Positions 12,313-48,245 of a DNA stretch of 64,000 bases are shown here, piece by piece (the first letter of the stretch is position 1; each line of letters begins with the position of its first letter). The notes under the pieces are model-generated. The model was not told where the DNA came from. It saw nothing but the letters and a program-made list of their open reading frames with translations, and made no database searches. Origin of the DNA: an uncultured Clostridia bacterium (GTDB lineage: Bacteria > Bacillota > Clostridia > Oscillospirales > CAG-272); NCBI GenBank assembly GCA_947626065.1, contig CANQQT010000002.1, forward strand, positions 76,197 to 140,196. Reading direction: 5' to 3'. A program made the position numbers and the translations under genes.

Positions 12313-12324
12313 AATATCACTTCC

Positions 12325-21527: not shown

Positions 21528-21592
21528 CGTAACCTCAAGGAAAAACTTATGAAGAAAAAAATTCAAAAGGAAACAAAACAAGGTGATGAACA

Positions 21593-21847: not shown

Positions 21848-21869
21848 TTCTATATAAGGAGAATTTACC

Positions 21870-23780: not shown

Positions 23781-23791
23781 GGAGGCACACG

Positions 23792-24496: not shown

Positions 24497-24512
24497 AAGG
24501 AGGAGAAATTTC

Positions 24513-27356: not shown

Positions 27357-27448
27357 AGGCGAAGAATTTTGGCCCTTTGTCCCGTGCCGTGGGAGAAGCA
27401 GGAAGTGTAAAGCCATAAATAAGACCGTGGGGGAGTCCTCTCCCCGCG

Positions 27449-27478
27449 AAAAAGCCCCGCCTTCCGGCAGGGCTTTTT
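27449..27478. terminator. bidirectional rho-independent terminator between convergent genes
   Basis: AAAAA-GCCCcGCC-TTCC-GGCaGGGC-TTTTT hairpin flanked by an A-run and a T-run. It lies between the TIR paralog 2 stop (27356) and the RyR gene stop (27530). Confidence 0.7.
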
Positions 27479-27529
27479 CGATGGCTTCCTCCGCGCTTAC
27501 AAAGCCGCGCGGCGTTTTCCCGAAAGCTC

Positions 27530-27817
27530 TTATTTCTTCTCAATCCGATACCCGAGCGCAATCACCAGCTTCAAAGTATTGAGCGCCGTCTTGCGGTCGT
27601 ATTCCTTTTCGGTATCCGGAAGGGCTTCATACGGGACAAGGCAGGGCGTCTGCTTCTTCGCATCGTCCCGCTTTTCCCCGTAGGTCCAGCCCTCCGCAAC
27701 TCTTCCCTCCGCCCAGACGTCGTGAACGTTTTCCGCAATCTTTTCGGTCAGCTCAAGAAGGTCGTCGGGGAGCTCGATCCCGTCGGTGTCCAGCGGCTTC
27801 GGAACGTACTTTTTCAT
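27530..27817 (-). CDS. RyR-domain protein (stand-alone)
   Basis: 95 aa. IAENVHDVWAEGRVAEGWTYGEKRDDAKKQTPCLVPYEALPDTEKEYDRKTA fits the RyR-domain pattern (H-x2-W...GW-x-YG...hP-x-LVPaxxLPxxEKxxDR). Confidence 0.75.
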   Translation of the reverse strand: MKKYVPKPLDTDGIELPDDLLELTEKIAENVHDVWAEGRVAEGWTYGEKRDDAKKQTPCLVPYEALPDTEKEYDRKTALNTLKLVIALGYRIEKK

Positions 27818-27910
27818 TGCATTTTCTCCTTTTTCGCAGAAATTTCGGCTTTTGCGGCATAGTCCGCTATATAGTCAATATATGCCGCTTCGCGGGCCGC
27901 GCTCCGGGTC

Positions 27911-30028
27911 TTATGAATCTTTTTTCTTTTCATGAGAATCCAGATTTTTCCACGCTTTCAGATCGTTGTGCTGTTTGGCGATATCGTTTCTGTTCGGGGA
28001 ATACCGGTACCCAAGCGTTCTCATATACATATTCCATCGCATATGCTCCGACACGGCCTCTCTTGCACAATCTTCACACGTGCATCCCGCCGGGTGGTCG
28101 GGCTTCCCCTCCCCGCTATCCGATGCAAGATACTTCTTTGCCTCGGCAAGTAGCTCCTCATGCGTTGCTCTCGCGACAGACGATTTTCTGTAGTATTCGT
28201 AATCCATATACCCCTTCGTTTTCTCAATAATCGACTCCCCGAGGGCCTTTGTATCCTCCGACCCCCTGTCCTTTTGGGTCACCGCATCCCTTCTTGTCCA
28301 ATCGAGATGATACCGCAGAGCCTTATCCTCGATTTTCTTCTCTTCGCGAATCCTGTCGTAGGAATATTGATAGCCGAGATTGCCTATAAAGTCAATTCCG
28401 AGGGGCTCCCCGCGATAATTGACGATCCCTCTGCCCTGATTGCAGGTCAGGTTGGCGGCCTTTCTGTCGTCGTAAACGACGGAATAGATCAACGGCTTCT
28501 TCGGCTTCTTCGATGAGTCGGCGTCCCCGGCGCTCGAGCAGAGCCTTTCAAACAGGGTGCGGAGCATCACGGCGGCGTCTATGTTTTTGTCGTCTTCCCC
28601 CAAGGCGACAAACGCAATCCGCGTCCTGCGCAGTCGTTCGCCCGTCTCATTCTCCGCCTCAAACAGTCGGTCAAAATCGGAGGAAAAGCAATCCACTCCG
28701 TCAAAGAACCGGATATCGTAGCAGGAATCTCCTTTCACATCCTTCACAAAGCTCCGAACCTCGTAACCGGAAGCTTCGTCCTTCTCCCCCGCGCGATTCC
28801 TTGGTTCCGTATCGGTGATGATTTCCGGCCATTCCTGCCCCAGTCTTTTCAGCAGATTCTTTTTGCCGCCCTTTTCCTCAAAGGACGCGTCAAAGACGTT
28901 GACCTCCACCTTATATCCGAAAAACTGAAACGTCGACAGCGCCTGCTTCAAAAATTCCTTCCCGTAGCTACCCATTCCGAGAATCGTGAAGGAAAACCTC
29001 CTCTCCGCATTGTCCTCAAAGGCGGCGTCCACGGTTTCTGTCCGCTTGAGCACCTGCTGTACCAGCATCTCTACGCAATCGATTCTTCGGAGGTAGAAGC
29101 CGGAATCGACTGTCTTCTCGCTGTAGAGCTTTTCTTCCAAAAACACCCACGGGTTTTCCTTGATGCTTGCCTCCAGCGTTTTATCCAGTGTGTATTTTCC
29201 CTTGTCCAGAGAATCGAGAATATACCCCGCGCTCGGCTTATTGGAAAAGACGAAAATCGCGATAGGACGGATTGCGCAGTCGTTTTTGTACTCCTCCGTC
29301 AGCTTGATCGCCTGTTCCATGTTTTCGGATTCGTCTTTTCCAATCAGGAAGAACTCCACCCGGTCTTCTTTGGCCTTGACGTTGACCCGGGTGATATCCT
29401 TTTTCAGCAGAATGGCATTGACGTCATGCGCTCTTAACCGGAGCTCATAGTCCTCCTCCTCGTCCCTCTCGAAAACGTCGGTAAAAACGATGACCGGCTT
29501 TTTTATTTCTTTGTCTTTTTTGATGCTTTCCGCCATCGTGATCGACATTTCGTTCAGTTCGGAAAAAATATAGAAGGGCCTCTTTTTCTTCCACGAGAAC
29601 AAAAACTCATTTCTTGCGTTTTTGAAGAGGGAAAGAACGTTGCTGAAGGTAAGAAGCGGCGCCAGAACGTACAGCAGGGCCGCGTAGAGCGAAAAGAGAA
29701 TATGCGGAAGCTCCCCGACCCCCGCGACGGCATTCCGGACGGCGTCAAATTCCCCGTCGAGGATGAACACGCGGAGGGCGTGGTGTACAGAAATCAGAAA
29801 CGGCCTCGCCACCGCGAAGGAGTCCCCGAAATCGTATCCCACATAATAAACCGGGACAAAGACAAAAACCGTCGCGGCAAAGACCCCGAGGGTAAAAATA
29901 TGAAGCGCGGAAAGCACTCTTTTCCCGCGTTCCTTTCCTTTGTAGGCTTTTCTTGCAAGAAAACCGGCCGCAATCAGAACGGCAAATGAAAGCAGACCGA
30001 ATACGGTATATAATACATTCTCTTTCAT
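27911..30028 (-). CDS. membrane protein with Rossmann-like (GxGxxG) modules and C-terminal RyR-like domain
   Basis: N-terminal ~5 hydrophobic helices. FTILGMGSYGKEFLKQAL dinucleotide-fold motif. C-terminal VSEHMRWNMYMRTLGYRYSPNRNDIAKQHNDLKAWKNLDSHEKKKD is RyR-like. Start set to ATG 30028 (GGAGAAAATT upstream) rather than the TTG at 30079. Confidence 0.7.
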   Translation of the reverse strand: MKENVLYTVFGLLSFAVLIAAGFLARKAYKGKERGKRVLSALHIFTLGVFAATVFVFVPVYYVGYDFGDSFAVARPFLISVHHALRVFILDGEFDAVRNAVAGVGELPHILFSLYAALLYVLAPLLTFSNVLSLFKNARNEFLFSWKKKRPFYIFSELNEMSITMAESIKKDKEIKKPVIVFTDVFERDEEEDYELRLRAHDVNAILLKKDITRVNVKAKEDRVEFFLIGKDESENMEQAIKLTEEYKNDCAIRPIAIFVFSNKPSAGYILDSLDKGKYTLDKTLEASIKENPWVFLEEKLYSEKTVDSGFYLRRIDCVEMLVQQVLKRTETVDAAFEDNAERRFSFTILGMGSYGKEFLKQALSTFQFFGYKVEVNVFDASFEEKGGKKNLLKRLGQEWPEIITDTEPRNRAGEKDEASGYEVRSFVKDVKGDSCYDIRFFDGVDCFSSDFDRLFEAENETGERLRRTRIAFVALGEDDKNIDAAVMLRTLFERLCSSAGDADSSKKPKKPLIYSVVYDDRKAANLTCNQGRGIVNYRGEPLGIDFIGNLGYQYSYDRIREEKKIEDKALRYHLDWTRRDAVTQKDRGSEDTKALGESIIEKTKGYMDYEYYRKSSVARATHEELLAEAKKYLASDSGEGKPDHPAGCTCEDCAREAVSEHMRWNMYMRTLGYRYSPNRNDIAKQHNDLKAWKNLDSHEKKKDS

Positions 30029-30085
30029 AATTTTCTCCACTGAGGCGGACGCCGTCCCGTTACGTACGGCGTCCGCCAACCGCTC

Positions 30086-33000
30086 TTACAGATTTGGATC
30101 CCCGTTTTTGCTTTCCTGAAAAACTTCCGCAATTTCTTCCCCGGTGAGATGATTTTCCGACAGCAGTCTTTCGACCAGCTTATCGATGGAGGCTCTGTTC
30201 TCCTCAATCAGCCGGGCGGCCTTGCCCATTTCTTCCGAAAGAATCGCGTTCACCGCCCGCCGAACCTCTCCGGCAAGCTCCCCCGTCGCCGCCTCCTGCG
30301 GCCCTATCACGGCGAGGCCGATCGTCTCATCCATTCCGTAAGAACAGATGAGCTGCCGGGCCATCTCGGTCGCGGAGGCAAGGTCGCCGCTCGCGCCTGT
30401 GGACAGCCCTTCCCTTTCCCCGTAGTAAACGAGCTCCGCGGCGCGGCCTCCGAGGGAGGTTCTTATTCTGGAAAGCAGCTCGTCCTTTGTATAGATCGCC
30501 TTCCCTTCGTTGTCCCCGTGCTGCATATACCCGCCGTGATTGCCTCTTGCGACAACCGTGACGTAGGAGGGCGTTTCCCCGCTCTGCCAGCAGAGGAAGG
30601 CGTGTCCCGCCTCGTGTCTTGCGACTCTTTCAAGCTGAGAGGGAGCCCAGCTTTTCACCTCGCCGCCGATGAAGGTTTCAAACGCCTCCTCAAAGACGGC
30701 GTCGGTCACCTTGAGGTTTCCGTCCCGGATGGCGGTACGGAGCGAGAGCTCGATCACCGATTCAAGCTCCGCCAGACTCATGCCCGTCGACCGAACGGCG
30801 ATGCTGGCGATTTTATCCTCCGAGAGCTCAAAGGCCGCCCTCTCCGAAAGCTTTCCGCGAATATACCGCACTCTCTCGTCCCGCGTGGGCAGGTCTATGT
30901 ACACCCTTCGGTCAAAGCGGCGCAGCAGCGCGGGATCCAGACTTTTCTCCCCTCCCGGCTCAATGTCGAAATTTGTCGCCGCAAGCACGAAGACGGGGCG
31001 GGCGGTGTCGGTCTTGAACCCGTCCATTTCGGTAAGAAAGGCGGTAAGCGTCGCTTCCGTTCCTCCGGAAAGCTCCCCGCCCCTTCTTTCCTTGGCGATG
31101 GCGTCAATTTCATCGACAAACAAAATGGCCGGGGCGTATTTTCTCGCGGTGCGGAAGAGCTCATGAACCTTGTCGGGGCCCTCTCCCACGAACTTTTTTA
31201 AGAACTGATTCCCCTCCGCGGTGATGAAGGTCACGTCGGATTCGCTCGCCATCGCCTTGGCAAGCATGGTTTTCCCGGTTCCGGGAGGGCCGTACAGAAG
31301 GACTCCCTTCGGCGCGCTGACGCCGGTTCCCATATACTTTTTGGGATCCTTCAGGTATTCGACAAAATACCGCAGCTCCTTTTTCGCGTCCTCGGCGCCG
31401 ATCACCTGATCGAAGCGGACGTCGGGCCTTGAGATGCTACTGAGGATGTTTTTGGAATCCTCCGCCTCGATGGCGACGGTCATTTCAAAGTCAAACAGCT
31501 TGATTTCCGCCGTTTGGCCCTTGTTCTTGATCCGCTGTGCGGTTTCAAAGGTAACCAGCTTGTTGGCCTTCGCCAGCGTCTCCATGCTCCTCTGCTGATG
31601 AAGCTTTTCGTTCACCGCTTCAATCTCTTTTGCAAAGCCTTCCCGGCCCTTGGTGAGCGTAATGACCCCCCGAACACCCTGCCGGAGGAAGGAGAGCTGC
31701 TCTTCATACGCCAACTCTTTCTCCTGTAGCTGCAACAGATAGATCGGAACGTCGGAATGCGCCCCACGCATATACCAGAAGAAATCCCTTGCGTCAGACT
31801 CCACGTCCTCAATATTGAGGTATTTGAGCTCCCCGCGTTGACCGTAGGTGGGATCGATGAGAAGGTAGCTCACCCCGTTTTCGCGGAGGGCCTTTTTGGC
31901 ATCCTCCACCGTTCCTGCATAAAGGAACCGCGTGCCCGGCTCCTTTTGAACGCACTGCTCATAGACCGGCCGGGAGGAGAAGACAAGAACTTCCTGCGTA
32001 TCCTGCTTCTCAAAAAGCCCATACAGCTCCTTATTCTCTCTGGGAAGCTCCACACGGATGTCTATCTTTTCGAGCTTTTCCACGCCGGCGTTTGATTTTC
32101 TTGACTCAAGCAGACGGAAAAGCTCAAACAGCTCGTCGTCGAAGAAGGCCTCCGCCCGGCTCCGTACCGTTCTTGCGTCGGCGGCGCCGCCCTCCGCAAA
32201 GAGAAGCGCCGTGTATACCTTCTCGTCAATATCGACCTTGATTCCAATCTCCTTCTCAAAGTTCGAGGCGTGTCTTTTCACCTCCCGCCGTGCGATTTCG
32301 CAGAGGTTATGCGCGGTGATATGATTGAACATCACCACATTTCCGGAAGCAAAGCGGGAGCAAATCGCGGCGGGAAAATAGGGAGTCCCCGTCGCCGGAT
32401 TGACGTCGTTCTGAAGAGCCTTCAAAATGACCTTTCTCGTCACGCCGGAAAGATCCGTCGTTTCCGCGCTCTCATAAAGCTGTTTCCCGGCGTTGGTGGT
32501 GAAAATGATGATGGCGTCCTTAAAGGAAACCTCTTTATCGGTAAAATTATCGCGCAGTCTTCCGGCATCCAGCATCTGTAGGAACAGATGAATGACGTTG
32601 AGGTGCGCCTTTTCGATTTCGTCGAAGAGAACGACGCAGTGAGGATGCTTGGCCACAAAGGAGGTTACGTTGCCCTCCTTGGCGTTCTTGTAGACGTTAT
32701 CCGCGCCGCAGAACTCAATATCCGCCTCTTTGTTGGAATACTCGCTCATGTCAAAGCGCATGAACGGCAGTCCCAAAAGCGCCGCCGCCTCTTCCGCCAA
32801 AAAGGTTTTTCCCACGCCGGGAGGGCCCGCGAAGAGGAAGGTAGCGCGGGGCCGCTTTCTGTTTACGTCGGTAAGCGCCAAAAGCTCCGCCTGAAAATAT
32901 CCCGCCGTGAAGACGCTGACCGCGTTATCCTGACCGAACACCGACGACAGAAGCGCGTCCTGTATGCCGGTGACCCTTCTCGTCAGCTTGGCAACCGCGG

Positions 33001-33586
33001 TTTTCGGATCCTCCTCCGGCTCCTCGTCCGGCTTTTTGTCATCCTCAGCGCCGCCCGCGCTGTCCGTGTCGCCGTCAAAAATGGCCTTTGAAATATCCTC
33101 CACTGGGATTCCTTCTACGCCGGTTTCCCCCGTGTCGCCGATTTCTTCGATGTCGTCGACACCGCCCTCGGCGGCCCTTCTCGCCTTGAGGAGAAAGCCC
33201 GCGATATTTTCATTCGGATCCCTGAAAATACTTTCCAGAAGCGCGTCCGCCGTCAGGCAATCGCTTTTTTTCTTTTGGGCGGCCTCTCTGGCCTCAAACA
33301 TATGCTTCTGAAAATACAGGGCGTCCATATACGAGGGGAGGCGCAGCGTCTCGAGGTACTCCATCGCATAGGCTCTGACGCTGGAAAGATCCCGAATTTT
33401 TGAGGAAAGGAGCGTTTTCATTGCCCTTCCTTCCTCTCCCAGCTCGCTCTCCTTCGCCTCCGTCACAAAATCAATGACGGCGACAAGATACCGTTCCGCC
33501 GTCACGGTCTTCTTTTGATCTTCGGTCAAATTCTCTGCATACTCGATCAGATCGTCGAGCAGATCGCTGTTTTTTACTTCTGCCAT
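30086..33586 (-). CDS. soluble Clp_N-like / ClpB-D2-type AAA+ / FtsH-type AAA+ / M41 metalloprotease fusion
   Basis: VFGQDNAV...FLFAGPPGVGKTFLAEE...VVLFDEIEKAH (Clp D2-type). Then LLYGPPGTGKTMLAKA...ILFVDEIDAI...LLRRFDRRVYIDLP (FtsH-type). Then HEAGHAF (HExxH of M41). No TM helices seen. Start trimmed to ATG 33586 after GAGGAGAGG. Confidence 0.88.
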   Translation of the reverse strand: MAEVKNSDLLDDLIEYAENLTEDQKKTVTAERYLVAVIDFVTEAKESELGEEGRAMKTLLSSKIRDLSSVRAYAMEYLETLRLPSYMDALYFQKHMFEAREAAQKKKSDCLTADALLESIFRDPNENIAGFLLKARRAAEGGVDDIEEIGDTGETGVEGIPVEDISKAIFDGDTDSAGGAEDDKKPDEEPEEDPKTAVAKLTRRVTGIQDALLSSVFGQDNAVSVFTAGYFQAELLALTDVNRKRPRATFLFAGPPGVGKTFLAEEAAALLGLPFMRFDMSEYSNKEADIEFCGADNVYKNAKEGNVTSFVAKHPHCVVLFDEIEKAHLNVIHLFLQMLDAGRLRDNFTDKEVSFKDAIIIFTTNAGKQLYESAETTDLSGVTRKVILKALQNDVNPATGTPYFPAAICSRFASGNVVMFNHITAHNLCEIARREVKRHASNFEKEIGIKVDIDEKVYTALLFAEGGAADARTVRSRAEAFFDDELFELFRLLESRKSNAGVEKLEKIDIRVELPRENKELYGLFEKQDTQEVLVFSSRPVYEQCVQKEPGTRFLYAGTVEDAKKALRENGVSYLLIDPTYGQRGELKYLNIEDVESDARDFFWYMRGAHSDVPIYLLQLQEKELAYEEQLSFLRQGVRGVITLTKGREGFAKEIEAVNEKLHQQRSMETLAKANKLVTFETAQRIKNKGQTAEIKLFDFEMTVAIEAEDSKNILSSISRPDVRFDQVIGAEDAKKELRYFVEYLKDPKKYMGTGVSAPKGVLLYGPPGTGKTMLAKAMASESDVTFITAEGNQFLKKFVGEGPDKVHELFRTARKYAPAILFVDEIDAIAKERRGGELSGGTEATLTAFLTEMDGFKTDTARPVFVLAATNFDIEPGGEKSLDPALLRRFDRRVYIDLPTRDERVRYIRGKLSERAAFELSEDKIASIAVRSTGMSLAELESVIELSLRTAIRDGNLKVTDAVFEEAFETFIGGEVKSWAPSQLERVARHEAGHAFLCWQSGETPSYVTVVARGNHGGYMQHGDNEGKAIYTKDELLSRIRTSLGGRAAELVYYGEREGLSTGASGDLASATEMARQLICSYGMDETIGLAVIGPQEAATGELAGEVRRAVNAILSEEMGKAARLIEENRASIDKLVERLLSENHLTGEEIAEVFQESKNGDPNL

Positions 33587-33676
33587 TTTCCTCTCCTCTT
33601 TCCCATGGATAGCCGCCCCTTGTCCTGACGGTTCTTCCGGGGACTTCCCGTGCTTTCGCCGCACTTTCTTTTCTCG

Positions 33677-34468
33677 TTATCGGTAAAATTGATCCGCGTA
33701 CTCCCAATAGTATTCCTGAAGGGTTTCGTCAAGATAGCCTAAACCCTCTTCCTGAAGCTCCTCAGGGATTCCGAAATACGCCTCCGCGATGGCGCCCGCC
33801 ATGGCCGCCTGCGTGTCGGCGTCGCCCCCGAGAGAAACGGCACAACGGACGGCGTCCTCATAATCCTCCGCTTCAAGAAAGCATTCGATCGCCTGTGGAA
33901 CGCTTCCCTGACAGGTGACGTCGAACCGGTATCCCTCCCGGATTTCGTCGAGGGTAAAGTCAAGGTCATAGTATTTCTCTTCTATATACTGCTTGATTTC
34001 CTCTTTGCTGGAACCGGTTCTGGCAAGGAAAACGGCGGCCGCGACGGCCTGCGCACCCTTTATGCCCTCCGGGTGATTGTGCGTCACCTCCGCGCTCCAT
34101 TTGGCGAGCTCCTCCACGTCGTCAAGCTCGTCCACTGCGTAGGCAACCGGCGAGACGCGCATGGCGGAGCCGTTGCCGAAGCTGTTGTACGCCCCCATGC
34201 TGTCGCTCATCAACCACCGATAAAACATTCCCCCGTAGCCGGCGTCGCTGTAAATCCTTCCGAGCTCCCTCATCTTTTCGACGAGCTTTCTTTTGAACTC
34301 CTCCTCTTGGCTACAGTCCGCCTCTATACACGCGCACCCCACGGCGATCGTCATAATGCTGTCGTCGGTGGGTCTGCTATGAGAGGAAAAGAAAGGAAAA
34401 TCCTTTGTCTTATCCGAACCGATTTCATAGACGGAACCTACGATATCCCCGATAATTGCTCCCAACAT
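33677..34468 (-). CDS. ADP-ribosylglycohydrolase family protein
   Basis: MLGAIIGDIVGSVYE...PTDDSIMT...GNGSAMRVSPVA...GGDADTQAAMAGAIAEA are classic ARH/DraG-family motifs. Confidence 0.88.
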   Translation of the reverse strand: MLGAIIGDIVGSVYEIGSDKTKDFPFFSSHSRPTDDSIMTIAVGCACIEADCSQEEEFKRKLVEKMRELGRIYSDAGYGGMFYRWLMSDSMGAYNSFGNGSAMRVSPVAYAVDELDDVEELAKWSAEVTHNHPEGIKGAQAVAAAVFLARTGSSKEEIKQYIEEKYYDLDFTLDEIREGYRFDVTCQGSVPQAIECFLEAEDYEDAVRCAVSLGGDADTQAAMAGAIAEAYFGIPEELQEEGLGYLDETLQEYYWEYADQFYR

Positions 34469-34599
34469 TTTTCTATTCTCCCTGTCTAGGCCGCCCTTCC
34501 GGCGACCGGTATTTTTTCATGGTTTTTTTGGATCGAGCGGCCCTGACCGCTCCGGAAAAGAGGGAAGCGCTTCCCGCGTTTCCCTTTTCTCCCTCGTTT

Positions 34600-36786
34600 T
34601 TACCGCAAATACGGAAGCAACCGGCTCCGGAATTCGCTCATTTTCACGATTTCCCTCTGCCTCAGCTGCCCCGGCAACCTTCCCTTGTCCCCGACAATAT
34701 CGTCGGCCAACAGCAGAACCAAATTGCCCTTTTTGCGCCCTTCCCGGATTTCGTTATTGAACGTGCTCCATTCGTCCTTCACCCACGCGGTTTTCAGATA
34801 GTCGGGATTCGACCCGATCAGAACCATGTGGCGGGAACGGTCGAGCGCTTCAAAAATCATCTCCTCATATTCGCTTTCGCCGAGGCGTGGGAGGGTTTCC
34901 TTTGAGTAGAAAACCTCCTTTCCGCTCTGCGTCAGATAGTCGTAAACCTTCTTCGCGAGAATTTCGTCCTCCGACTTGAACGACAGAAAGACGTCGTATT
35001 CCCCCGACCTTGGCAGGGCCTGTCCCAGATAAATCTTAAGCGCCTCGCCGACGAGGGAATTTTCCCCCGGCACGGCCTCCCCGTCAAGGGCGCTCAGCTC
35101 CGCGATACGGCTTATGCATTTGTCGGCGATTTCGCCCTTCAGGCCCATGTGCTTGCAATAATTCAACACCCGCTCATACCCGAGAATCAGATCCGACCGG
35201 CTCCCGCTCGGCGGCGGATCCTTCAAAATATCCTCAAACAGGGCGATGGCGGCCTCTCCGTGCTCGGCGATCTTGCTCTCCTTGGCCTCCTGCCCGCTCG
35301 CCTCTTTTTCGGTTCCTCTTTCGTTGGTTTCTACTGTATACCGTGCGTTTTCAAACCGGGAAAGAAGATCCTCAAGGCGAGAGGAGTCCTTCGCCTCCGC
35401 GCCGTCGGAGGAAAGCGTGTCGAAGCCTGTCAGCTTTTTCCTTGCAAGCTCCCGGACGGCATCGGCGTCCATCCCCAGATATGCACAGCAGATAGCGAAC
35501 TGATCCAGCAAAACCTCGCCGCTGTCCCCGCCGTCAAGAAGATTCAGCGCCTCCACCGACCGCTCCAGAGCCTCTTCATACCTCTTCATGTCCAGAAGAA
35601 TGCTGATCCACTTGATGCGGGAAAGCCTGCACACCTCAGCGTCAAGGAAGGCGCCCCGGGAAACGGCAAAAACCTCCTCGCAGAGGGCGAGATGGGCCTC
35701 CTGCCACTGCCTTGCCTGATCGTACATTTTCAGGCAGAGGTAGTTTTCCACCTTTTTGGAAAAGGCCTTAAGCTCCGTCTCCGCAGAGAGGAGCTTGCTT
35801 ATTTTTCCCGCCAGCTTATCGGCGGCGGCTTCGATGTCCCCGTTTTCCACAAGCTCACAGCTCAGAGCCGCGATTCGGCTTCCGACCTCGGAGGCGCTGT
35901 CAAGCTTCACCCCATCCTCAAAGACGGGGAAAAGAAGCGTTCCGTTCTTTTCTGCGCTCTCAAGGGCAAACAGCGTCTCCCTCATCACCTCCGCGCTGTT
36001 CAGCGCGTTGTCCGTAATGACGGGAACGACTATTTTGGCGTTCTGTATGGCGCTTGTCATCGCCTTGTCCCAATCGGCGGACGCGGCCGGCTGCCTATCG
36101 TCGAAAACCGAGATTCCCTTCTCCGAAAGCGCGCGGCAAATGGAGGAATGGAGTGCGGCGTCCTTCTTTGCGCAGGAGACGAACACCTCCGCATACCGCA
36201 GCTCCTTCTCCTTATTCAGGGCATAGTCGTTTATAATGCTTTCATACTGCTTGTATAAGCTCCGATAATCAAACAGCGACCCTTCGCCTCCGTAGACCAC
36301 CACGCGGTCAAAGGCGGACGAATACTTTAGATAGCTCTGCTTCACGTCGCGCCCGGTCTCAAAGCGAACCCTTGCTTCCTCCTCGGTGATGTTGTCCAGT
36401 CTTGCGATGATGCCCCTCAGCGTCTCGTCGTCTATGTAGGCATAAACCAGACAGACCTTGTCCGCATATACGCGCTTGATTTCGGCGAGGAAGGAGATGT
36501 CCTTTGTCGACAACGTGAGCAGACTGTTGACCTTATCGCAAACCGCGTCGGAGATTTGCTGCTGATTGAAGCCGACCCGGATGCCTCCCACCTCATAGCG
36601 GAACAGGGAGTCGGTGTTTTCTGTAAACTCCTCCTCCGACACATACTTGCGGGTACCGTATTTGGTTGTCAGCCGGGGCGCTACGGCATAGTTGTATTTC
36701 TCTACAATCTGAAAGCCTGCGTTTTTAAAATAATCGCGGCTGTTTTGCCCCATTTCCGCAATGGCTCCGTAAAGTATCAATAACAT
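34600..36786 (-). CDS. guanylate-kinase-like (degenerate P-loop) / TIR-like / helical / TIR protein
   Basis: C-terminal TIR YDVFLSFKSEDEILAKKVYDYLTQSGKEVFYSK...TAWVKDEWSTF. Central TIR-like EVFVSCAKKDAALHSSICRALSEKGISVFDD. The N-terminal ~190 aa resemble guanylate kinase (YVSEEEFTENTDSLFRYEVGGIRVGF) but have GAIAEMGQNS where the Walker A motif would be. Start trimmed to ATG 36786 after GGGAGGG. Confidence 0.8.
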   Translation of the reverse strand: MLLILYGAIAEMGQNSRDYFKNAGFQIVEKYNYAVAPRLTTKYGTRKYVSEEEFTENTDSLFRYEVGGIRVGFNQQQISDAVCDKVNSLLTLSTKDISFLAEIKRVYADKVCLVYAYIDDETLRGIIARLDNITEEEARVRFETGRDVKQSYLKYSSAFDRVVVYGGEGSLFDYRSLYKQYESIINDYALNKEKELRYAEVFVSCAKKDAALHSSICRALSEKGISVFDDRQPAASADWDKAMTSAIQNAKIVVPVITDNALNSAEVMRETLFALESAEKNGTLLFPVFEDGVKLDSASEVGSRIAALSCELVENGDIEAAADKLAGKISKLLSAETELKAFSKKVENYLCLKMYDQARQWQEAHLALCEEVFAVSRGAFLDAEVCRLSRIKWISILLDMKRYEEALERSVEALNLLDGGDSGEVLLDQFAICCAYLGMDADAVRELARKKLTGFDTLSSDGAEAKDSSRLEDLLSRFENARYTVETNERGTEKEASGQEAKESKIAEHGEAAIALFEDILKDPPPSGSRSDLILGYERVLNYCKHMGLKGEIADKCISRIAELSALDGEAVPGENSLVGEALKIYLGQALPRSGEYDVFLSFKSEDEILAKKVYDYLTQSGKEVFYSKETLPRLGESEYEEMIFEALDRSRHMVLIGSNPDYLKTAWVKDEWSTFNNEIREGRKKGNLVLLLADDIVGDKGRLPGQLRQREIVKMSEFRSRLLPYLR

Positions 36787-36816
36787 CCTTGTCCCTCCCG
36801 GAACATTTCCTACGCA

Positions 36817-36928
36817 AGCGGATTTCTCCACACGCGGATTTTTCCGCACGCGGATTTCTCCGCAAGCGGGTTTCTCCGCACGCGGATTTCTCCACACGCG
36901 GATTTCTCCGCACGCGGATTTCTCCGCC
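36817..36928. repeat. tandem repeat, 7 units of 16 bp (CGCGGATTTCTCCGCA)
   Basis: Units read directly at 36817, 36833, 36849, 36865, 36881, 36897 and 36913. The array starts 31 bp upstream of the TIR gene start and creates the false N-terminal extension of ORF 34600..36897. Confidence 0.9.
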
Positions 36929-36971
36929 TATTCGCGTCCATCCGCCGAAAAACGGGGAATGACCGCAAGCG

Positions 36972-37436
36972 TCATTCTTCCCTCATCAAAAGCGAAGCCG
37001 CCCTTTCGATATGCCTCTCTTCCAGCCCTCGGCCAATCAGCGGATCGGTTTTCACCGTATAAGGATCCAGCTCCTGCCAGCCGAACTTCTGGTCGTCGAA
37101 AATCACGAAGGCCTCCGTTTCGGGGTGCCTTGTCAGCCAGTCCTTGACTTCCTTGTATCTCTCCTTGCCGAGCTCCTTTGTTCTGTCCCAGAGACGGAGT
37201 CCCTTCCGGCGAAAGGTTTCCTCAAGCGCCCGACCGACCTCGTCGGTCTCCTTCCCCTCCGGATCCCAGTGGCGCCGCCACGTGCTTGTCAGCACAAGGT
37301 TGGCCCCCGTCCGATCCGTCAGCTTTTTCAGCAGCTCAAGCCGGCTTTCGTCGATGTTTCCGTCCTCCGATCCCCGCGAAGCGTCGTACCGACGGGAATT
37401 GAGAACGCCGTCGATATCCAGAAAAATGATTTTCAC
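36972..37436 (-). CDS. HAD-superfamily phosphatase (small, cap-less; polynucleotide-phosphatase-like)
   Basis: MKIIFLDIDGVLNS (DxDG nucleophile motif), LTSTWR (motif II) and VIFDD (motif IV); 154 aa. Confidence 0.75.
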   Translation of the reverse strand: MKIIFLDIDGVLNSRRYDASRGSEDGNIDESRLELLKKLTDRTGANLVLTSTWRRHWDPEGKETDEVGRALEETFRRKGLRLWDRTKELGKERYKEVKDWLTRHPETEAFVIFDDQKFGWQELDPYTVKTDPLIGRGLEERHIERAASLLMREE

Positions 37437-37552
37437 GTCTTGCTCACCACCTTTCCGGTCGGCAAAGGGACGGGGCCTTCCCCGTCCTTCGCCGATTCCA
37501 ATCGCCGCGCCTCCCGGCGCCGTTGTCTTTTCCTCTATATCCTTCCGGACAA

Positions 37553-38431
37553 TTACTTGTATTTAAACGTGAGCGTGAGCGTCCAAAGATTCTTGTCATA
37601 TCTACGCGAATAGGAATTCCCCAAAATTTTCCTGTTCGCTTTGGACGCCGCCCGCACAACCTCATAGCCGTCCTGTCCCACGGCAATCAGCTGATTAAAG
37701 GCTTTCTCGAAGACCTCCTTGCTTTTACACTTAAAGGTAACCTCCTTTTTCCCGGACTTTGCCGCCGCCTGCGCCATCACGTTGACAATATCGCCGGCGC
37801 CGGAGGACTCATAGGCAAAGATTCCTCTGTCGGGCTTGCTTTCCGGCTTGGTCACGTTCTTTCCGATCGCCAGATAGGTGATGCGCGGAGTCGAATTGTT
37901 GGGCATAACGGTGGAGGCATAGGAGGTCAGCTTGGAATTCAGCTCCCCCTCGGATACGATACCTCCCGAGGAGCTTTGAAATTCTCCGTCGGTAATCACC
38001 ACAAGCCAATACTGCGTATTGACGTCGGGATCCTGAACGGATGCCAGCTTGTTGAAGGCGATATCCAGAGCGTTATACGGGGTATTGCTCGCCGCAGTAT
38101 GCTTCCGGATGGAATCGACCGAGGACTGTATCGCCGAAGCGGACAAATCAATCCCGGGCGGGTTGAGGTTCGGATTCTTCTCCGCCTCGCTCATATAGGT
38201 GATATAGAGCTGATCGTCGCTGTTCAGCAATCCGCAGAAGGCTTGCATGGCATAGCTTGCATAGGCCCAGTTGGACGACCCGTAATTCTTCATGCTTTCG
38301 GAGTCGTCATAGACTACGGAAACAATTTTCCGGATATACAAAGAATCTGCGGCGACAGTCATCGGGATATACGCCGCAAAGACACTGCCAAAGAGAACGA
38401 CCGCTAGCAATGCCGCCAGTAGCCTTTTCAT
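37553..38431 (-). CDS. signal-anchored von Willebrand factor A (vWA) domain protein
   Basis: MKRLLAALLAVVLFGSVFAA signal/anchor, then the MIDAS motif VVYDDSESM (DxSxS) and VVITDGE. Start trimmed to ATG 38431 after GAAGGAGG. Confidence 0.8.
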   Translation of the reverse strand: MKRLLAALLAVVLFGSVFAAYIPMTVAADSLYIRKIVSVVYDDSESMKNYGSSNWAYASYAMQAFCGLLNSDDQLYITYMSEAEKNPNLNPPGIDLSASAIQSSVDSIRKHTAASNTPYNALDIAFNKLASVQDPDVNTQYWLVVITDGEFQSSSGGIVSEGELNSKLTSYASTVMPNNSTPRITYLAIGKNVTKPESKPDRGIFAYESSGAGDIVNVMAQAAAKSGKKEVTFKCKSKEVFEKAFNQLIAVGQDGYEVVRAASKANRKILGNSYSRRYDKNLWTLTLTFKYK

Positions 38432-38589
38432 CTTGTTCCTCCTTCGATGTCGCCTGTTTGCGGCGGCGCGGCCCTTTTCGGGGAAATTTCTGAACACCGG
38501 ATTCCTCCGGTTTCCCCATCCCGGGCCCTCTCCGCCCTGCTTTCGTATGACAGCAAGCCCCGGACGCGGTGCCGGAGCTTGCTGATAAG

Positions 38590-39066
38590 CTATTTACGAT
38601 TGGCTATGAAATCACCGACGGTGAGCACGCCCTTGCAAATCGCAAGAAATTTATCGTTAAAGGCGTCAACCGTCGCGCAGGAGCAATCGATCATATAATG
38701 GAACAGGCCGTCTCCGATTTTGCTTTCCCGGAAGGACGCCGTCATTCTGAAGACAATCGCTCCGGTAGAAATGTTATAGTCAAAGCTGCCGTCCGCGAGA
38801 CGGTTGGTGGCCACGCAGGTGGCAATCGCCAGATCCATGCGTTTGTCCTCCGGAACGGCAAAGGGGAGCTTGGAGAAGAGGCGAAGAAGCTGACGATCGG
38901 AATCTATGGCGAGGACAAACTCCATCGGGATATCCTCTCCCGAGACGCTAAACGTTACGACCAGATCTTCCCCGCGCTTCTGATACTTCCAATTTCTTCT
39001 GTCCAGTGCGGCACACAAGTCCCCATACACCGCTTGGGCGCGAGCCGTTTCCTTTGCATCAGCCAT
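38590..39066 (-). CDS. YbjN-domain protein (paralog b)
   Basis: 158 aa. The overall pattern (AVYGDLCAALDRRNWKYQK...FDYNISTGAIVFRMT) resembles the YbjN / T3SS-chaperone-like family. Paralogous to the upstream gene. Confidence 0.65.
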   Translation of the reverse strand: MADAKETARAQAVYGDLCAALDRRNWKYQKRGEDLVVTFSVSGEDIPMEFVLAIDSDRQLLRLFSKLPFAVPEDKRMDLAIATCVATNRLADGSFDYNISTGAIVFRMTASFRESKIGDGLFHYMIDCSCATVDAFNDKFLAICKGVLTVGDFIANRK

Positions 39067-39079
39067 GATCTTATCCTCC

Positions 39080-39559
39080 TCAGTTCTTTGTTTCGCTTTC
39101 GATAAATTTATCGATGCCTATCAAGCCCTTGCCAAGCATCAGGAATTTATCGTTGTAGTTATCAATCGTCTGGCAGGAGCATATCACCATATAAAAGACA
39201 AGCTCCTTGCTGATTTCGCTCTCAATGAAACTGCTGGTCAGGCGGAAATACATCTGCCCGTTGGTGACGTCATAATCAAAGCTACCGTCTACCATTTCGT
39301 CGTTGACCACGCTGACTGCGATGGCTACGTCGAGCCGCTTGTCTTCGGGAATGACAAAGGGAAGACGGGAAAGCAGAATAATCAGCTGCCGCCCGGCGTC
39401 AACCACAACGGAGAGCTCAATGGGGAGATCCTCGCCCTGCGCGCTGCAGTCGATGCGGAGCTTTTCCGAATCTTTCTTATAATGCCATTCGTTGTCGTCC
39501 AGTGCGTCACACAAAGTTTTATAAACCGTTTGCGCCCGTGCCATTTTTTCGTCTGCCAT
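39080..39559 (-). CDS. YbjN-domain protein (paralog a)
   Basis: 159 aa, clearly homologous to 38590..39066 (TVYKTLCDALDDNEWHYKK...FDYDVTNGQMYFRLT). The two genes are 13 bp apart. Confidence 0.65.
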   Translation of the reverse strand: MADEKMARAQTVYKTLCDALDDNEWHYKKDSEKLRIDCSAQGEDLPIELSVVVDAGRQLIILLSRLPFVIPEDKRLDVAIAVSVVNDEMVDGSFDYDVTNGQMYFRLTSSFIESEISKELVFYMVICSCQTIDNYNDKFLMLGKGLIGIDKFIESETKN

Positions 39560-39781
39560 ATCTTTTTTCTCCCTGATTCCATATTTTCATCGCTTGCGCG
39601 ATAAATTCTTCTCAGCGGCCGAGACAGCCAAGGAAAAATTGCCTTCACACCCGAATTCGTAATATGCGCAACGCCAAAAAACAGGTAAAAATTCATCGGT
39701 CGGCCTCAAACCGCCCCTTCAAGCCTCCCGTTTTAACGGAAAGAACCTCTTTTACCCGCTATTTTAAATTAAACATAGCGC

Positions 39782-39810
39782 ATTATAACACATTTTGAAA
39801 CAAAGGTCAA
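39782..39810 (-). promoter_or_regulatory. strong sigma70-type promoter (extended -10) heading the YbjN...RyR gene string
   Basis: Minus strand reads TTGACC (39810-39805), a 17-nt spacer ending TGT, then TATAAT (39787-39782). About 220 nt of leader precede ATG 39559. Confidence 0.65.
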
Positions 39811-40309
39811 GGCGTTTTTCGACAAATTTTTGAATATTGTTCTGACTTTTTCGTTTAAATTATTCATTTTAATTTGTTATCGTTCTTTTTTCACCTTTTA
39901 CAGGCATTTTGCGGCATCAATTGGCCATGTTCCCCCAGTAATGCTCCCCCCCTTGGGCAAAGAATCCTTTTATCATCAAAGCAAGACGTCCTTCGCACGT
40001 CTGCCCTCCGCTATTCCAGCCATACTTTTTTAATATGCCTGTCCTCGCCTTTTTCCGCTCTTTTTCCATCATCCCTACGGTAACCGAACTCCGCCCGTTT
40101 TTTCGTAAAAATATAGGTTCATTCCACACACTTTTGCAAAAAATCCTTGACAGTACCTTATATCGGCATGAAATCGTTTGACAAAGCGAATTTGGAGTCA
40201 TCCTATACATTTTTGCGAAAAAATTTAACAGAACCCCTTACGTTCTACTTAATGCAATCAACTTTTCTTTTTGCCCTAGCGCCTTTGATTAAAAAAATCA
40301 TGTGAATTG

Positions 40310-43300
40310 TCAAATTGAATTGGCCGACATTACAACATCTATCAAATTTTGCTTTTCTCGTTCGTAGTCGTTTATCCATGCTGTAGGATATATTCTATAT
40401 ATATTCCACCCATATTTTTGAGTAAGAACCTGCTCCGTCAGCCTCGTATACTCCCGCACGCTGTCAAAATCCGTGCGTCGCGGGTCATCCACTATGATAC
40501 CCAGAGCATAGCAGCCGTCTTCGTTCGCTTTGCGTATACCTATATTAATTTTACATTCAGAGCGGCCAATTTCCGTATCGTAAGCGACACCGATTTCATC
40601 AAGAACCCTGCATATATCTGTGACGAACGGATTATATGTTTCCCCGCTAACGACTTTTTGGACTCTCGTGAACATCTGTGCGTACTCAAGAAAATTGCAT
40701 AGCATTTGCGCCCCTGCTTTGTTCTCGCTTGGAGCAGAACTGGTTTTCATTGCCATGTTTAACTCAGACGATTTCAATGTGGAGACAACGATCATTCTGT
40801 GCTTGGCTCGTGTCACAGCGACATTTATTCTTTTCATGCCCGAGAGCAAACGAATACGCCCCAGATAAGGAAGCGTAAACTTCCCATGGCTATCCGGGCT
40901 GTAGCATATACTAATTATAGTAATATCCCGTTCATCGCCTTGCACCGTATCTAAATTGCAAAATATAAGCGGTTCTTCTTCATGCATTTTTTCCCACTGC
41001 TCAATCGCTGCTTTTTTGTCGGCTCTTTGTTTAAAAACCTCCCAACGCGACTCTATCTCATACGCCTGTGCATTGCTAAAAGCCACCACGCCGATGGAGA
41101 ACGCCTTGCGTTCAGGATGAGTCATTTCTTCATATATCAGCTCCACAATCCGATCTGCTTCGCCGGAGTTTATGTGTGCCCCGTTCTTGCCTGCGACATA
41201 GCACGTGGAAGGCGTATATTGCACGGGCACATAGTCTATTCCGTCATTAGGATTTCTCTTTGCTGAAGGAAAACTAATGAGATTATACTCCATTTCCTTG
41301 TTAGAAAACGCTATCAATGCCTCATCGCAGCTCCTATAGTGCCATGCCAACGAAATGGATGCATCACCTAATGCTTTGTCAGCGGAGGCAAGCAAAGAGT
41401 TTTCAATATTTGCTTCTTCTTCAAAGTACTGCTCATCATCGTCCTGCATATTTTCTCCTGCTCTAAAGAAGTCGCAAGGAGGCAACTGTTTGCTATCACC
41501 CGCAATAATAATTTGCTTTCCTCTTACAATTGACGCAAGAGCATCCTCTGTAAAAATTTGCGAAGCCTCATCAAAAATAACCAAATCAAATTGCAAACTC
41601 ACATCAATATATTGACTCACATTCAAAGGCGACATCATAAAACAAGGTCTTATGTGTTTTATGTACTCCCAATTCTCCAGTATTGTTTGTTTGATTGAGT
41701 AGTTTGTCTTTGATTGAAGCTTGGGGTACTCGCCTTTTGCGCCATTAGCTTTGCCGGATGCCGCACGCCGCAAATACATATTAAGCGTTTCATACAGGCG
41801 TTTCGCTCCTGTATTCAGCATACGCTTATCTGCCTCGGCATAGCTTTCCATAAGCTTTTCATGTTCCGCTCTTGAGAAATCCCGTATACAATCAAGATGG
41901 TTTGTATCAATGAATTCCTTTACAATCTGTTGATAATAAGATCGAAATAAGCGCGCATTTGCTGTTTCGAAATCGCTTTCGTTACTGTCAATCAACTCAT
42001 CAAGAACAGATCTCCAGCCCGCCTGCTCTATTTTTTCCACTATCATCACCAAACGATACCAATCAGCAAGCATTGCTTGATGATGGATAATGGCCTCAGA
42101 TAAAGAAGTATATGCAAGAAAATACTTGCGCGGGGACTCCATAAAAGCGCCAAATTGATTTCCTAACGACTGTTCATCCGAAAGTGCTTTTGTAAGCAGC
42201 CCTTCTAACGTTTGCAAATGATTGATTGTCCCCGAATATTGTAACGGAGCGAAACGCAGAGACCAATCTGTAACACACCTCAAATCCAATATTTGATTAT
42301 TATGCTCGAATAGGATTGACAAGACAGCATTTAACGATTTGATCAAGTCGTCCCAATCGGCTTCGCTTTCCGGTTCATATCCTAATATCTCAAGGTCTTC
42401 ACTTTCTTGTCGTTCGTTACGCGATTTTAATTGCAAATACTCTCTATATTGTTCCAATTGTTTCAAAGCATTACTGGTTGATTTATAATTGTGTTTATGG
42501 GGAGGCGTATTAAAGCACGCAAGAACCGCTGCTTTCCATTCCTTGTACTTTTTACCATGCCTCATAAAAGCGCTCTGGTATTCTTCTGACTCAATTTTTG
42601 CCTGTTTTATGTCAAGAGCACAATATTTTATGTAATCAATCGCAGACGAATATTCTTTCCCTTCGTGGTTCTTTAATCTTGTTATTGTTTTTTTTCTTGC
42701 TTTCGCCAATTTTAAAATGTCATTTATTTTCCTTTCGCTGGGATTATTGAGAATTTCTCCCACAATTTTTTCCGACAGCTTCGGCATCTGTGACCAAAGG
42801 TGGAGCATCTTCTCACACACTTGCATATCAGAGAAGTGATATCCAACCTTCCAACCATCGTTCGCTAAATCAGAAACCACCTTTGTTATTGTGTCGTACA
42901 CGGCCTTATATTCAGAAGCAATTTTCAACAACGTGGAACCGGAATCCCCTTTACACCCATATAAGGGGTGCTTTCTATAGTCAAGCACACTGCCGCAGAC
43001 TTTAATAGCGGTATAATATTGACGAATCAAGTCACGTAACTCCGTGAACTCTACGCTGTCCTTGGGGATTTTCGGTGTTTCATTTAGCGCTTTGAATGCA
43101 GAAAATTGTGCCATATCCTGCAATAGCCTCAAATAGTTGCGATCCCCATACTCTCCGCGGATTTGCTCCATGAACTTTTTTATTTGCTCGTATCGATGTT
43201 CCTCATCCGCAATTAGTTGATCGTCATAACCCCCAACAGGAGTATAGCTCACCAAGCATCTATTAAGCTCCGCAACAAAAGGATTCCGGCTCACCGCTCC

Positions 43301-45109: not shown

Positions 45110-45124
45110 TTAATAAAATGCCAA

Positions 45125-46405: not shown

Positions 46406-46435
46406 AACATAGCACCTCTTTTTTCAAAATTATTT

Positions 46436-48139: not shown

Positions 48140-48245
48140 AACTGTATGATGATAAATCTATCAAAAACAGGTAGCTCGAACGCAAACCCACTATAAAGAA
48201 CAGGGAGAATCGCAGAACGACTCTCCCCACTCCACGTTAAATTAC

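Follow-up and report, generated by a model that had tools for sequence, protein, structure and literature searches.

A gut-Clostridia gene cassette with TIR, RyR-domain and AAA-AAA-M41 protease genes as a possible Thoeris-like system

The DNA analyzed in this work is a stretch of 64,000 nucleotides from an uncultured Clostridia bacterium (contig CANQQT010000002.1, positions 76,197 to 140,196 of the forward strand), which is hereafter called the window. Nine co-directional open reading frames (ORFs) were called on its minus strand at positions 27530-39559. They encode two YbjN-like proteins, a vWA protein, a HAD phosphatase, a protein with two TIR domains, an ADP-ribosylglycohydrolase (ARH), an AAA-AAA-M41 protease, a membrane protein with a RyR repeat and a small RyR protein. 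A sequence-only reading had proposed these genes as a candidate NAD/ADP-ribose-centred conflict system. Our analysis revealed that the conserved core is YbjN-YbjN / AAA-AAA-M41 protease / membrane RyR / small RyR. The feature is real and recurrent and matches no named system tested; it points to nucleotide signalling of the TIR kind in which the receptor domain and the effectors would be new. The best explanation, which we put forward tentatively, is that the locus is an expanded form of a modular cassette of gut Clostridia, Thoeris-like, with RyR domains as signal receptors. The link between TIR, RyR and protease genes is supported, as is a possible role of RyR as a sensor; the nine-gene unit, the membership of the vWA protein and a constant ARH eraser are not.

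The conserved cassette and its proteins

The protease is built, from the N- to the C-terminus, of a helical N-domain (Clp_N-like by eye), an AAA domain of the ClpA/B-D2 type, a middle region, an FtsH-type AAA domain and an M41 peptidase domain with the HEAGH motif. In the comparison with NCBIfam, residues 202-461 aligned with ClpA/ClpB D2 and residues 710-1152 with FtsH 146-598. Both Walker A/B pairs and HEAGH are intact, and no hydrophobic membrane segment was seen by eye in the sequence. More than 100 relatives of the protease were found at 57-69% identity. Relatives are present in at least 343 species genomes, all of Clostridia, and the hosts are Oscillospiraceae, Acutalibacteraceae, Lachnospiraceae and Christensenellales-type metagenome-assembled genomes. 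One Acutalibacteraceae metagenome-assembled genome (JAZQKN01) contains three paralogous protease loci with different neighbours (L018, L060, L061). Upstream of the protease in L036, L068, L080, L082 and L089, we observed a ClpP-like protease, a ~547-aa protein without a family match and a TraG/VirD4-type coupling ATPase.

For the analysis of gene neighbourhoods, 80 related loci were fetched and mapped by tblastn, ORF clustering and iterated hidden Markov models (HMMs); some counts were made over 83 loci. Distance counts were restricted to 43 loci with at least 5 kb of flank on both sides, and a gene within 5 kb of the protease was counted as its partner. The counts of YbjN and HAD genes rest on tblastn, because the ORF caller chose antisense ORFs over some of these genes. 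Among the 43 loci, the partners were RyR (21), YbjN (19), CARF-nuclease (13), TIR (8), ARH (2), vWA (2) and HAD (1), and at least one of the first four was present in 35 loci. The usual neighbours, mostly at less than 1 kb and on the same strand, were the membrane RyR, the small RyR, the YbjN pair, a CARF-PD-DExK nuclease and a sigma-like/zf-HC2-like pair. RyR-domain genes made up 42/235 within 1 kb of the protease, compared with 1/165 at 7.5-10 kb. With the RyR, YbjN and membrane RyR genes set aside, Card1_endonuc (9) and TIR_2 (8), in this order, led the Pfam families of 138 unlabelled neighbours on the same strand. The PADLOC CARF_PDDEXK models matched 15 of these 138 neighbours (a ~415-aa protein, best E 7e-36), while Cas10, CRISPR-type and CD-NTase families were absent from the top neighbour families. 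The sequence-only reading had not foreseen that a CARF-nuclease and a sigma/anti-sigma pair would recur as partners. CARF-PD-DExK (Card1/Can2-like) nucleases adjoin protease or RyR genes in L008, L009, L025, L029, L038, L041, L042, L044, L045 and L047, and further loci of this kind are L049, L050, L053, L054, L062, L069, L073, L078, L088 and L089.

The five core genes are contiguous and in the same order (YbjN-YbjN-protease-membrane RyR-small RyR) in L021 and L039, and the same cassette is rearranged in L025, L053, L054 and L062. In the window, the vWA, HAD, TIR and ARH genes are inserted between the YbjN pair and the protease. Since the core is uninterrupted in some other loci and these four genes lie within it, the locus looks like an expanded cassette rather than a random row of genes. 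A tandem YbjN pair adjoins the AAA-M41 gene in 33 of the 83 loci, almost all of them without ARH, so the pair tracks the protease rather than ARH.

From its sequence, the 728-aa TIR protein is a putative sensor and signal generator. The first 190 residues were assigned to the guanylate-kinase (GK) fold, with a degenerate P-loop, on the basis of an AlphaFold2 (AF2) model and Foldseek (TM-score against guanylate kinases of 0.6-0.69, target-normalised; E ~5e-6), which agrees with the GK-like N-terminus noted before. The catalytic Glu that had been placed in TAWVKDEW is present: E672, the Glu of WVKDEW in the second TIR domain, is invariant across 22 orthologs, as is E270 in the first TIR domain. 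We found 40 other full-length database relatives of the GK-TIR-TIR protein. The TIR ortholog stands beside RyR genes or the protease in four of six other contexts. In L089, a CARF-nuclease, the membrane RyR and the protease are followed by the TIR ortholog across a 6-bp gap, and in L020 the ortholog lies 118 bp beyond the protease. The order in L088 is HAD_SAK_2, membrane RyR, small RyR, two genes and the TIR ortholog, with no protease; a CARF-nuclease and an extracytoplasmic function (ECF) sigma / zf-HC2 pair are located near the ortholog. L084, a 2.3-kb contig and the sole return of a metagenome scan with the TIR protein, carries the small RyR directly upstream of the ortholog. These varied gene orders argue against simple inherited synteny. 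Elsewhere, the ortholog lies near ARH, WYL and a fusion of HAD_SAK_2 with leucine-rich repeats (LRR) in L087 and within a TIR-rich island without protease or RyR genes in L086, and its context in L085 is limited by the contig end. The island in L086 (1-17553) comprises six TIR genes on one strand (TIR-FHA twice, TIR-Sel1/TPR, GK-TIR-TIR, TIR-kinase and a short TIR), together with a STAND NTPase, a NUDIX gene and an HD gene on that strand.

TIR proteins of various architectures directly adjoin the protease on the same strand in six loci (L001, L004, L009, L020, L022 and L035); the architectures of the protease-adjoining proteins are TIR-kinase, TIR-TPR, short TIR and GK-TIR-TIR. Recurrence of the ARH, TIR, AAA-M41 and RyR genes as neighbours had been proposed as a check of the sequence-only reading. 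Linkage was found for TIR, AAA-M41 and RyR, and it was thin for ARH, HAD and vWA.

To our knowledge, no cellular role of bacterial RyR-domain proteins has been known so far. In phages, the RyR protein RyDEP (PF02026) cleaves 2'cADPR as well as 3'cADPR, isomers of cyclic ADP-ribose (cADPR), and other phage RyR proteins bind them at nanomolar affinity, the contacts being H75, W78, H100 and D117 (PMC13232231). Phage RyR-Tad binds 3'cADPR, 2'cADPR and cADPR, with contributions from H129/W132, K147/H154 and K170/D171, and the Repeat12 domain of animal RyR binds ATP and ADP-like ligands (10.64898/2026.06.04.730250). In the membrane RyR family of the window, H662, W665, H687 and K703 are invariant and D704 is near-invariant, the same motif pattern as in the phage ligand contacts. 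Both the phage findings and the retention of these residues back the proposal that the RyR domains may act as ligand sensors.

The 705-aa membrane RyR protein gave no match in Pfam, PADLOC or NCBIfam. Its AF2 model reached a predicted local distance difference test (pLDDT) score of 86.8 and a predicted TM-score (pTM) of 0.81. A profile of 35 family members, compared with solved RyR domains, matched at the C-terminus with 8.6e-12, and the match to chain 35tm_A, a 139-aa RyR-domain protein, was 3e-4. An iterated RyR HMM also joined the 705-aa protein with the small RyR proteins. The best Foldseek matches were Slo1/Slo2.2 channels, which carry tandem RCK rings (probability 1.0, E 5e-5), at a query-normalised TM-score of 0.2-0.37. 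No K+ selectivity filter of the TVGYG type was recognisable; the conserved loop reads YDFGD. The missing filter and the low TM-scores speak against a canonical K+ channel. For the same two reasons, the modelled protein appears channel-like in architecture only, and we consider it a putative signal-gated membrane effector. The GxGxxG motif is invariant in the family, which suggests NAD(H) binding. The family is large, with 1466 clusters at 50% identity (E<=1e-30) and identities of 30-66%, and its members fall into two size classes of ~600 aa and 700-940 aa.

The small RyR protein matched the Bacteroides RyR-domain structure 3nrt with E ~1e-39. Its gene adjoins a membrane RyR or AAA-M41 gene in at least 18 loci. 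The 18 small RyR proteins, from L001, L002, L016-L018, L021, L025 and L027 among others, share with the protein of the window the motif KK[TQ]TPCLVPY, and the His, Trp and Asp are kept. Thr occupies the position of the second, phosphate-coordinating His, which corresponds to H100 of phage RyDEP and is kept in RyR-Tad and in the Bacteroides protein. The change suggests an altered ligand specificity or a non-binding partner repeat. Judged by sequence, the small RyR could be a partner repeat, a buffer or a hydrolase for the signal. The only match in viral contigs was L090, in which a RyR gene 62% identical to the small RyR lies amid small phage genes.

The remaining products are less firmly tied to the cassette, apart from the YbjN pair. 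Both YbjN assignments are borderline (20.7 and 23 bits against the Pfam cut-off of 22). YbjN-like protein 1, for which phmmer found no relative among solved structures, is a putative adaptor with the fold of type III secretion system (T3SS) chaperones. The ARH enzyme has human ARH3 as its nearest solved relative (3.5e-17); the motifs SVYE, TDDS and GGDADTQA line up with the active-site segments of ARH3, and the catalytic motifs are kept. ARH orthologs occur in three other loci: in L080 and L082 the gene follows AAA-M41 at a distance of 43 bp and 1.9 kb, respectively, and in L087 it is close to the TIR ortholog. The recurrence of ARH beside the protease or TIR is real but rare, and a regular role of ARH as eraser is not supported. 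The ARH query gave no match in viral contigs. Four other loci have a HAD ortholog, which adjoins the membrane and small RyR genes in L088, is close to the TIR ortholog in L087 and lies in the vicinity of AAA-M41 in both L024 and L058. The vWA protein begins with an N-terminal hydrophobic segment, MKRLLAALLAVVLFGSVFAA; as it is signal-anchored, it probably faces outward. Its orthologs lie near AAA-M41 in only ~5 of the 83 loci, mostly several kb away, and its membership in the cassette is doubtful. With so few loci carrying ARH, HAD or vWA, the nine genes do not form a fixed unit.

Proposed pathway and alternative explanations

We infer the following steps from the observed domain identities, conserved contact and catalytic residues and recurrent linkage. 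Upon infection or stress, the TIR protein would turn NAD+ into an ADP-ribose-derived signal, for example a cADPR isomer, with the degenerate guanylate-kinase-fold domain as a possible sensor. The signal would be received by the RyR repeat of the membrane protein. In the long class, this protein may pair with the small RyR as a Repeat12-like two-repeat module, a pairing suggested by the near-constant adjacency of the two genes. Binding of the signal would trigger a channel-like or membrane-perturbing activity and, as a result, a growth stop. The AAA-M41 protease with YbjN adaptors would provide a second, proteolytic output or control the first one; in other genomes, the CARF-PD-DExK nuclease and the sigma/anti-sigma pair may fill similar slots. 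ARH3 cuts the 1''-2' ribose-ribose O-glycosidic bond, the same bond that closes 2'cADPR. For this reason the ARH3-like enzyme is a candidate signal eraser, and together with the HAD phosphatase it may turn the signal over and reset the system.

In its most specific form, the proposal is a host-encoded TIR to cADPR-isomer to RyR pathway that gates a channel-like protein with transmembrane (TM), RCK and RyR parts, has the small RyR as a subunit, is coupled to the protease and YbjN and is reset by the ARH3-like and HAD erasers. It would be the first immune signalling with a RyR receptor and the prokaryotic equivalent of the animal cADPR-RyR link, perhaps even its evolutionary origin. We regard this complete version as unlikely.

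Several findings weigh against the Thoeris-like cassette. TIR was a partner of the protease in only 8 of the 43 full-flank loci, ARH in 2 and HAD in 1. The locus L002 has the protease and RyR genes without TIR. In L091 and L093, housekeeping genes alone surround the pair of membrane and small RyR, and in L092 the same is true of a membrane RyR by itself; from these cases, a locally encoded TIR is dispensable. The 57-69% identity among the proteases is far above what is usual for defence genes. The related loci come from related Clostridia, so the linkage counts are partly non-independent. The Thr of the small RyR clade, the missing selectivity filter and low TM-scores of the membrane protein, and the likely division of the string into two or three transcription units count in the same direction.

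The strongest alternative is that the genes share an island rather than one pathway. According to it, a self-contained TIR NADase effector with a GK sensor, an ARG-centric set (ARH, HAD, vWA and YbjN) that reverses phage ADP-ribosylation, and a separate protease/RyR module are merely juxtaposed. Terminator-like hairpins after the HAD and TIR genes, the variable partners with ARH, HAD and vWA rarely recurring, the TIR-rich island of L086 that lacks protease and RyR genes, and the other defence-like modules that flank the cassette in the window would all be expected from it. Neighbourhoods of ARG with a phosphatase and vWA or YbjN-like chaperones have been described as well (PMC9503650 section 3.8). 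However, the TIR ortholog is immediately beside protease or RyR genes in four other contexts with differing orders, and chance placement within 10 genes of a single-copy gene was roughly estimated at <1% per genome. Moreover, the four extra genes lie inside a cassette that is contiguous elsewhere, and 33 loci, nearly all of which lack ARH, have the YbjN pair with the protease. A Nudix or WYL regulator is missing from the nine products, and the vWA protein carries a signal anchor. We consider this alternative to be on the unlikely side.

Alternatively, the protease, YbjN pair and RyR could form a physiological unit of proteostasis or ion homeostasis in Oscillospiraceae-type Clostridia, in which the RyR and Rossmann domains sense ATP, ADPR or NAD(H), and TIR and ARH are incidental neighbours. 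The high conservation of the protease in at least 343 species, the purely housekeeping flanks of several loci and the invariant GxGxxG, suggestive of NAD(H) binding, fit such a unit, as does the binding of ATP and ADP-like ligands by animal RyR Repeat12 (10.64898/2026.06.04.730250). On the other hand, the membrane RyR family diversifies fast, as seen from its 30-66% identity and 1466 clusters at 50% identity, and the content of the loci is patchy and modular. The neighbours are also enriched for CARF-nucleases and TIR proteins, which are signature parts of immune signalling, and one genome has three protease paralogues (L018, L060, L061). In our opinion, this explanation is improbable. It is very improbable that the small RyR came from a prophage as an anti-Thoeris sponge or hydrolase like RyDEP / RyR-Tad and only resides in the island, where it would counteract the neighbouring TIR: phage RyR proteins of like size do so (PMC13232231; 10.64898/2026.06.04.730250) and the viral contig L090 carries the 62%-identical gene amid small phage genes, but the small RyR is found beside the membrane RyR or the protease in many species with no phage genes around, and the His-to-Thr change is clade-wide.

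If the functional link proposed for the Thoeris-like cassette is true, TIR immune signalling would gain a new class of receptor and new effectors, and the locus would be the first example of host-encoded turnover of TIR signals. It would also be a simple bacterial system in which to ask if RyR repeats of membrane proteins respond directly to cADPR-type molecules, a matter long unsettled for animal RyR. Only in 2026 were phage RyR proteins shown to bind or cleave TIR-made cADPR isomers; here, the neighbours of host RyR repeats include TIR enzymes, CARF nucleases, a large protease and an ARH3-like hydrolase, and one of these repeats belongs to a large unnamed channel-like membrane family of ~1,500 clusters at 50% identity. 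The soluble protease, a ClpB-FtsH fusion that occurs in hundreds of species of gut Clostridia, is probably an immune or stress hub.

Layout of the locus and its surroundings

The features of the locus are listed in Table 1. The nine minus-strand genes, with the same coordinates as in the sequence-only reading, are located between a strong promoter-like site and a bidirectional terminator, and the ORFs, the promoter and the hairpin were all confirmed. The promoter-like site is the best-scoring one within 27000-40400 and lies ~220 nt upstream of the first YbjN gene. Hairpins followed by U runs after the HAD and TIR genes make two or three transcription units likely, so the earlier caution that there may be more than one was justified. 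The shorter start codons chosen before (36786, 33586 and 30028) are backed by ortholog alignments and an identical database protein, and the domain assignments agree with Pfam, AF2, Foldseek and profile searches.

Table 1. Features of the TIR-RyR-protease locus, in the direction of transcription (positions in the window).
Feature	Position	Strand	Description
Sigma-70-type promoter-like site	39782..39810	-	TTGACC-17 nt-TATAAT, extended TG; 11/12 matches
YbjN-like protein 1, 159 aa	39080..39559	-	Pfam YbjN 20.7 bits, just under cut-off 22
YbjN-like protein 2, 158 aa	38590..39066	-	Pfam YbjN 23 bits; paralogue of YbjN-like protein 1
Signal-anchored vWA protein, 292 aa	37553..38431	-	Pfam VWA_2 27.7 bits; intact metal ion-dependent adhesion site (MIDAS) motif DDSES
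HAD_SAK_2 phosphatase, 154 aa	36972..37436	-	Pfam 6.5e-25
Weak terminator-like hairpin and U run	36957..36977	-	Directly after HAD stop codon
16-nt repeat array, 7.2 copies	36813..36927	-	Unit GGAGAAATCCGCGTGC; immediately upstream of TIR start codon
GK-fold / TIR / TPR-like helical region / second TIR protein, 728 aa	34600..36786	-	Pfam TIR_2 twice, 2.3e-30
Terminator-like hairpin	34562..34575	-	GGGAAGCGCUUCCC then UCUUUUCC; after TIR stop codon
ARH3-like ADP-ribosylglycohydrolase, 263 aa	33677..34468	-	Pfam ADP_ribosyl_GH 6e-35
Soluble AAA-AAA-M41 protease, 1166 aa	30086..33586	-	Pfam AAA_2, AAA and Peptidase_M41
12-bp GC-rich hairpin, no U tract	30040..30075	-	Between protease gene and membrane RyR gene; z = -3.1
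Membrane RyR protein, 705 aa	27911..30028	-	N-terminal helical bundle, two RCK/Rossmann-like domains (GxGxxG), helical linker, one RyR repeat
Small RyR protein, 95 aa, single RyR domain	27530..27817	-	Pfam RyR (PF02026) 6.5e-37
Bidirectional intrinsic terminator	27449..27478	.	AAAAAGCCCUGCCGGAAGGCGGGGCUUUUU; perfect hairpin between A run and U run

Each unit of the 16-nt array contains the palindrome GCGGA-GAAA-TCCGC (7 hits, 1.5 expected). The array could be an operator array or a structured leader/RNA element. It had no match in 90 related loci and is therefore no conserved part of the system.

The cassette is flanked by a TerY-P-like triad with a helicase-nuclease on one side and by further TIR-TPR genes on the other. 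The TerY-P-like set, located directly upstream of the cassette on the minus strand (40310-50551), consists of three ~215-aa vWA proteins, a PP2C phosphatase, a Ser/Thr kinase and a 1599-aa DUF4011-helicase-REase_MTES_1575 protein. Its GC content of ~0.41, compared with 0.55 in the cassette, suggests separate acquisition as a defence module. The plus-strand genes at 19380-27356, convergent with the cassette, encode two TIR-TPR proteins (one of which has DUF6273 at its C-terminus), a zinc-ribbon SPFH/Band-7 protein and a 234-aa protein without a family match. The window thus contains three TIR proteins in a span of 20 kb. At the left edge of the island (16228-18166), a 509-aa HTH_3 protein and a 168-aa AAA_33 / zeta-toxin-like kinase are encoded. 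Further to the left, at 11488-13551, jag/khpB (Jag_N, KH, R3H) is located beside yidC (60KD_IMP). This pair usually lies near the replication origin, and the defence-like island therefore starts only a few kb from the origin region.

Comparison with known systems

The sequence-only reading knew of no named defence system of such composition, and our searches agree with it: PADLOC and NCBIfam gave no named match for the nine proteins, only generic TIR and AAA matches, and in the literature we found no description of a YbjN-protease-RyR cassette with TIR. The closest resemblance is to Thoeris. A survey of TIR signalling distinguishes types I-XI with ~30 kinds of effector, including an 'ion channel' in type X (Yirmiya et al., 10.64898/2025.12.03.692087). 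As in Thoeris, a TIR with a catalytic Glu is found here near a presumed sensor domain for small molecules that is joined to a membrane or enzymatic effector (TM-Macro in type II), several alternative effectors may serve one signal, and the setting is a defence island. In the window, two genes separate the RyR genes from the TIR gene. The locus differs in that the presumed sensor is a RyR repeat, which does not figure among the sensors or effectors in the accessible part of the survey; the terms RyR, M41, ARH and Card1 are likewise absent from its text and supplements to that extent. The putative effectors also differ: one is TM-RCK-like, and the other is the AAA-AAA-M41 protease, which has YbjN partners. 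A GK-fold domain accompanies the two TIR domains of the TIR protein, the host locus itself encodes candidate enzymes for degrading the signal, and TIR is present in only about a fifth of the protease loci. With the Thoeris models, PADLOC gave only weak ThsB matches (best 9e-6) and none for ThsA, and NCBIfam gave none above the cut-off. The membrane RyR protein can be likened to type X (TIR and the ion channel ThsK) by description only.

With phage RyDEP and RyR-Tad, the locus shares PF02026, the H-x-x-W, K-x-H and K-D motifs of the membrane RyR family and the size of the small RyR. In the case of the four residues of RyDEP / RyR-Tad (His, Trp, His, Asp), the membrane RyR family keeps all and the small RyR clade three, with Thr in place of the phosphate-binding His. 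Unlike the phage genes, those described here are chromosomal and host-conserved in many species. The single RyR repeat is fused to a membrane/RCK-like body of 600 aa, which speaks for a receptor and not an inhibitor.

In ARG-centric systems, predicted to act against viral ADP-ribosylation, ARG is accompanied by a phosphatase, which may be of the HAD type, and by chaperones of the vWA or YbjN-like kind (Iyer, Burroughs, Anantharaman, Aravind 2022, PMC9503650 section 3.8). A Nudix-HTH or WYL-HTH regulator is present in ~42% of them, and their hosts are actinobacteria, planctomycetes and proteobacteria (PMC9503650). The likeness lies in the presence of ARH with a HAD phosphatase, vWA and YbjN-superfamily proteins in one neighbourhood; as in those systems, Pfam detected no ADP-ribosyltransferase (ART) or sirtuin/SIR2 domain among the nine products. 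Unlike some of them, the nine products contain no Nudix or WYL regulator by Pfam, and a WYL gene was seen in the related locus L087 only. In addition, the host is a member of Clostridia, the YbjN pair tracks the protease, the vWA protein has a signal anchor, and TIR, RyR and AAA-M41 are outside that description.

In CalpL-CalpT-CalpS, a protease reportedly acts with anti-sigma and sigma factors, and the Card1/Can2 CARF nucleases are said to be effectors activated by type III CRISPR signals or those of the cyclic oligonucleotide-based antiphage signalling system (CBASS). Related loci resemble these systems in that CARF-PD-DExK nucleases adjoin the protease in 13-15 of them and sigma and zf-HC2 anti-sigma-like pairs lie beside it, so that a protease and a transcriptional output may be under nucleotide-signal control as with CalpL. 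The protease described here is an AAA+ M41 machine, whereas CalpL is a Lon-SAVED protein, and the window itself has no CARF-nuclease or sigma/anti-sigma part.

The FtsH-type AAA and M41 domains and the nearby vWA gene recall the MoxR-vWA-FtsH ternary systems (Kaur et al. 2020, PMC7159879). Such a system was ruled out, since MoxR is missing, the N-terminal AAA is of the active ClpA/B-D2 type (GPPGVGKT, DE) in contrast to an inactive FtsH type, and the lineage is another one. FtsH proper was ruled out as well: no membrane segment is visible by eye, an extra Clp-type AAA is present, and with the NCBIfam FtsH model the protein scores 353, short of the cut-off of 600.

A further parallel is the cADPR-RyR axis of animals. 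SARM1 is a TIR-type NAD+ cyclase, and the direct binding of cADPR by animal RyR is unsettled. Compared with animal RyR and Slo, the membrane part of the 705-aa protein has no homology to theirs and no selectivity filter, there is a single RyR repeat, and channel activity is putative. The likeness is that a TIR protein is encoded in the same locus as a RyR repeat carried by a membrane protein with tandem RCK-like cytoplasmic domains.

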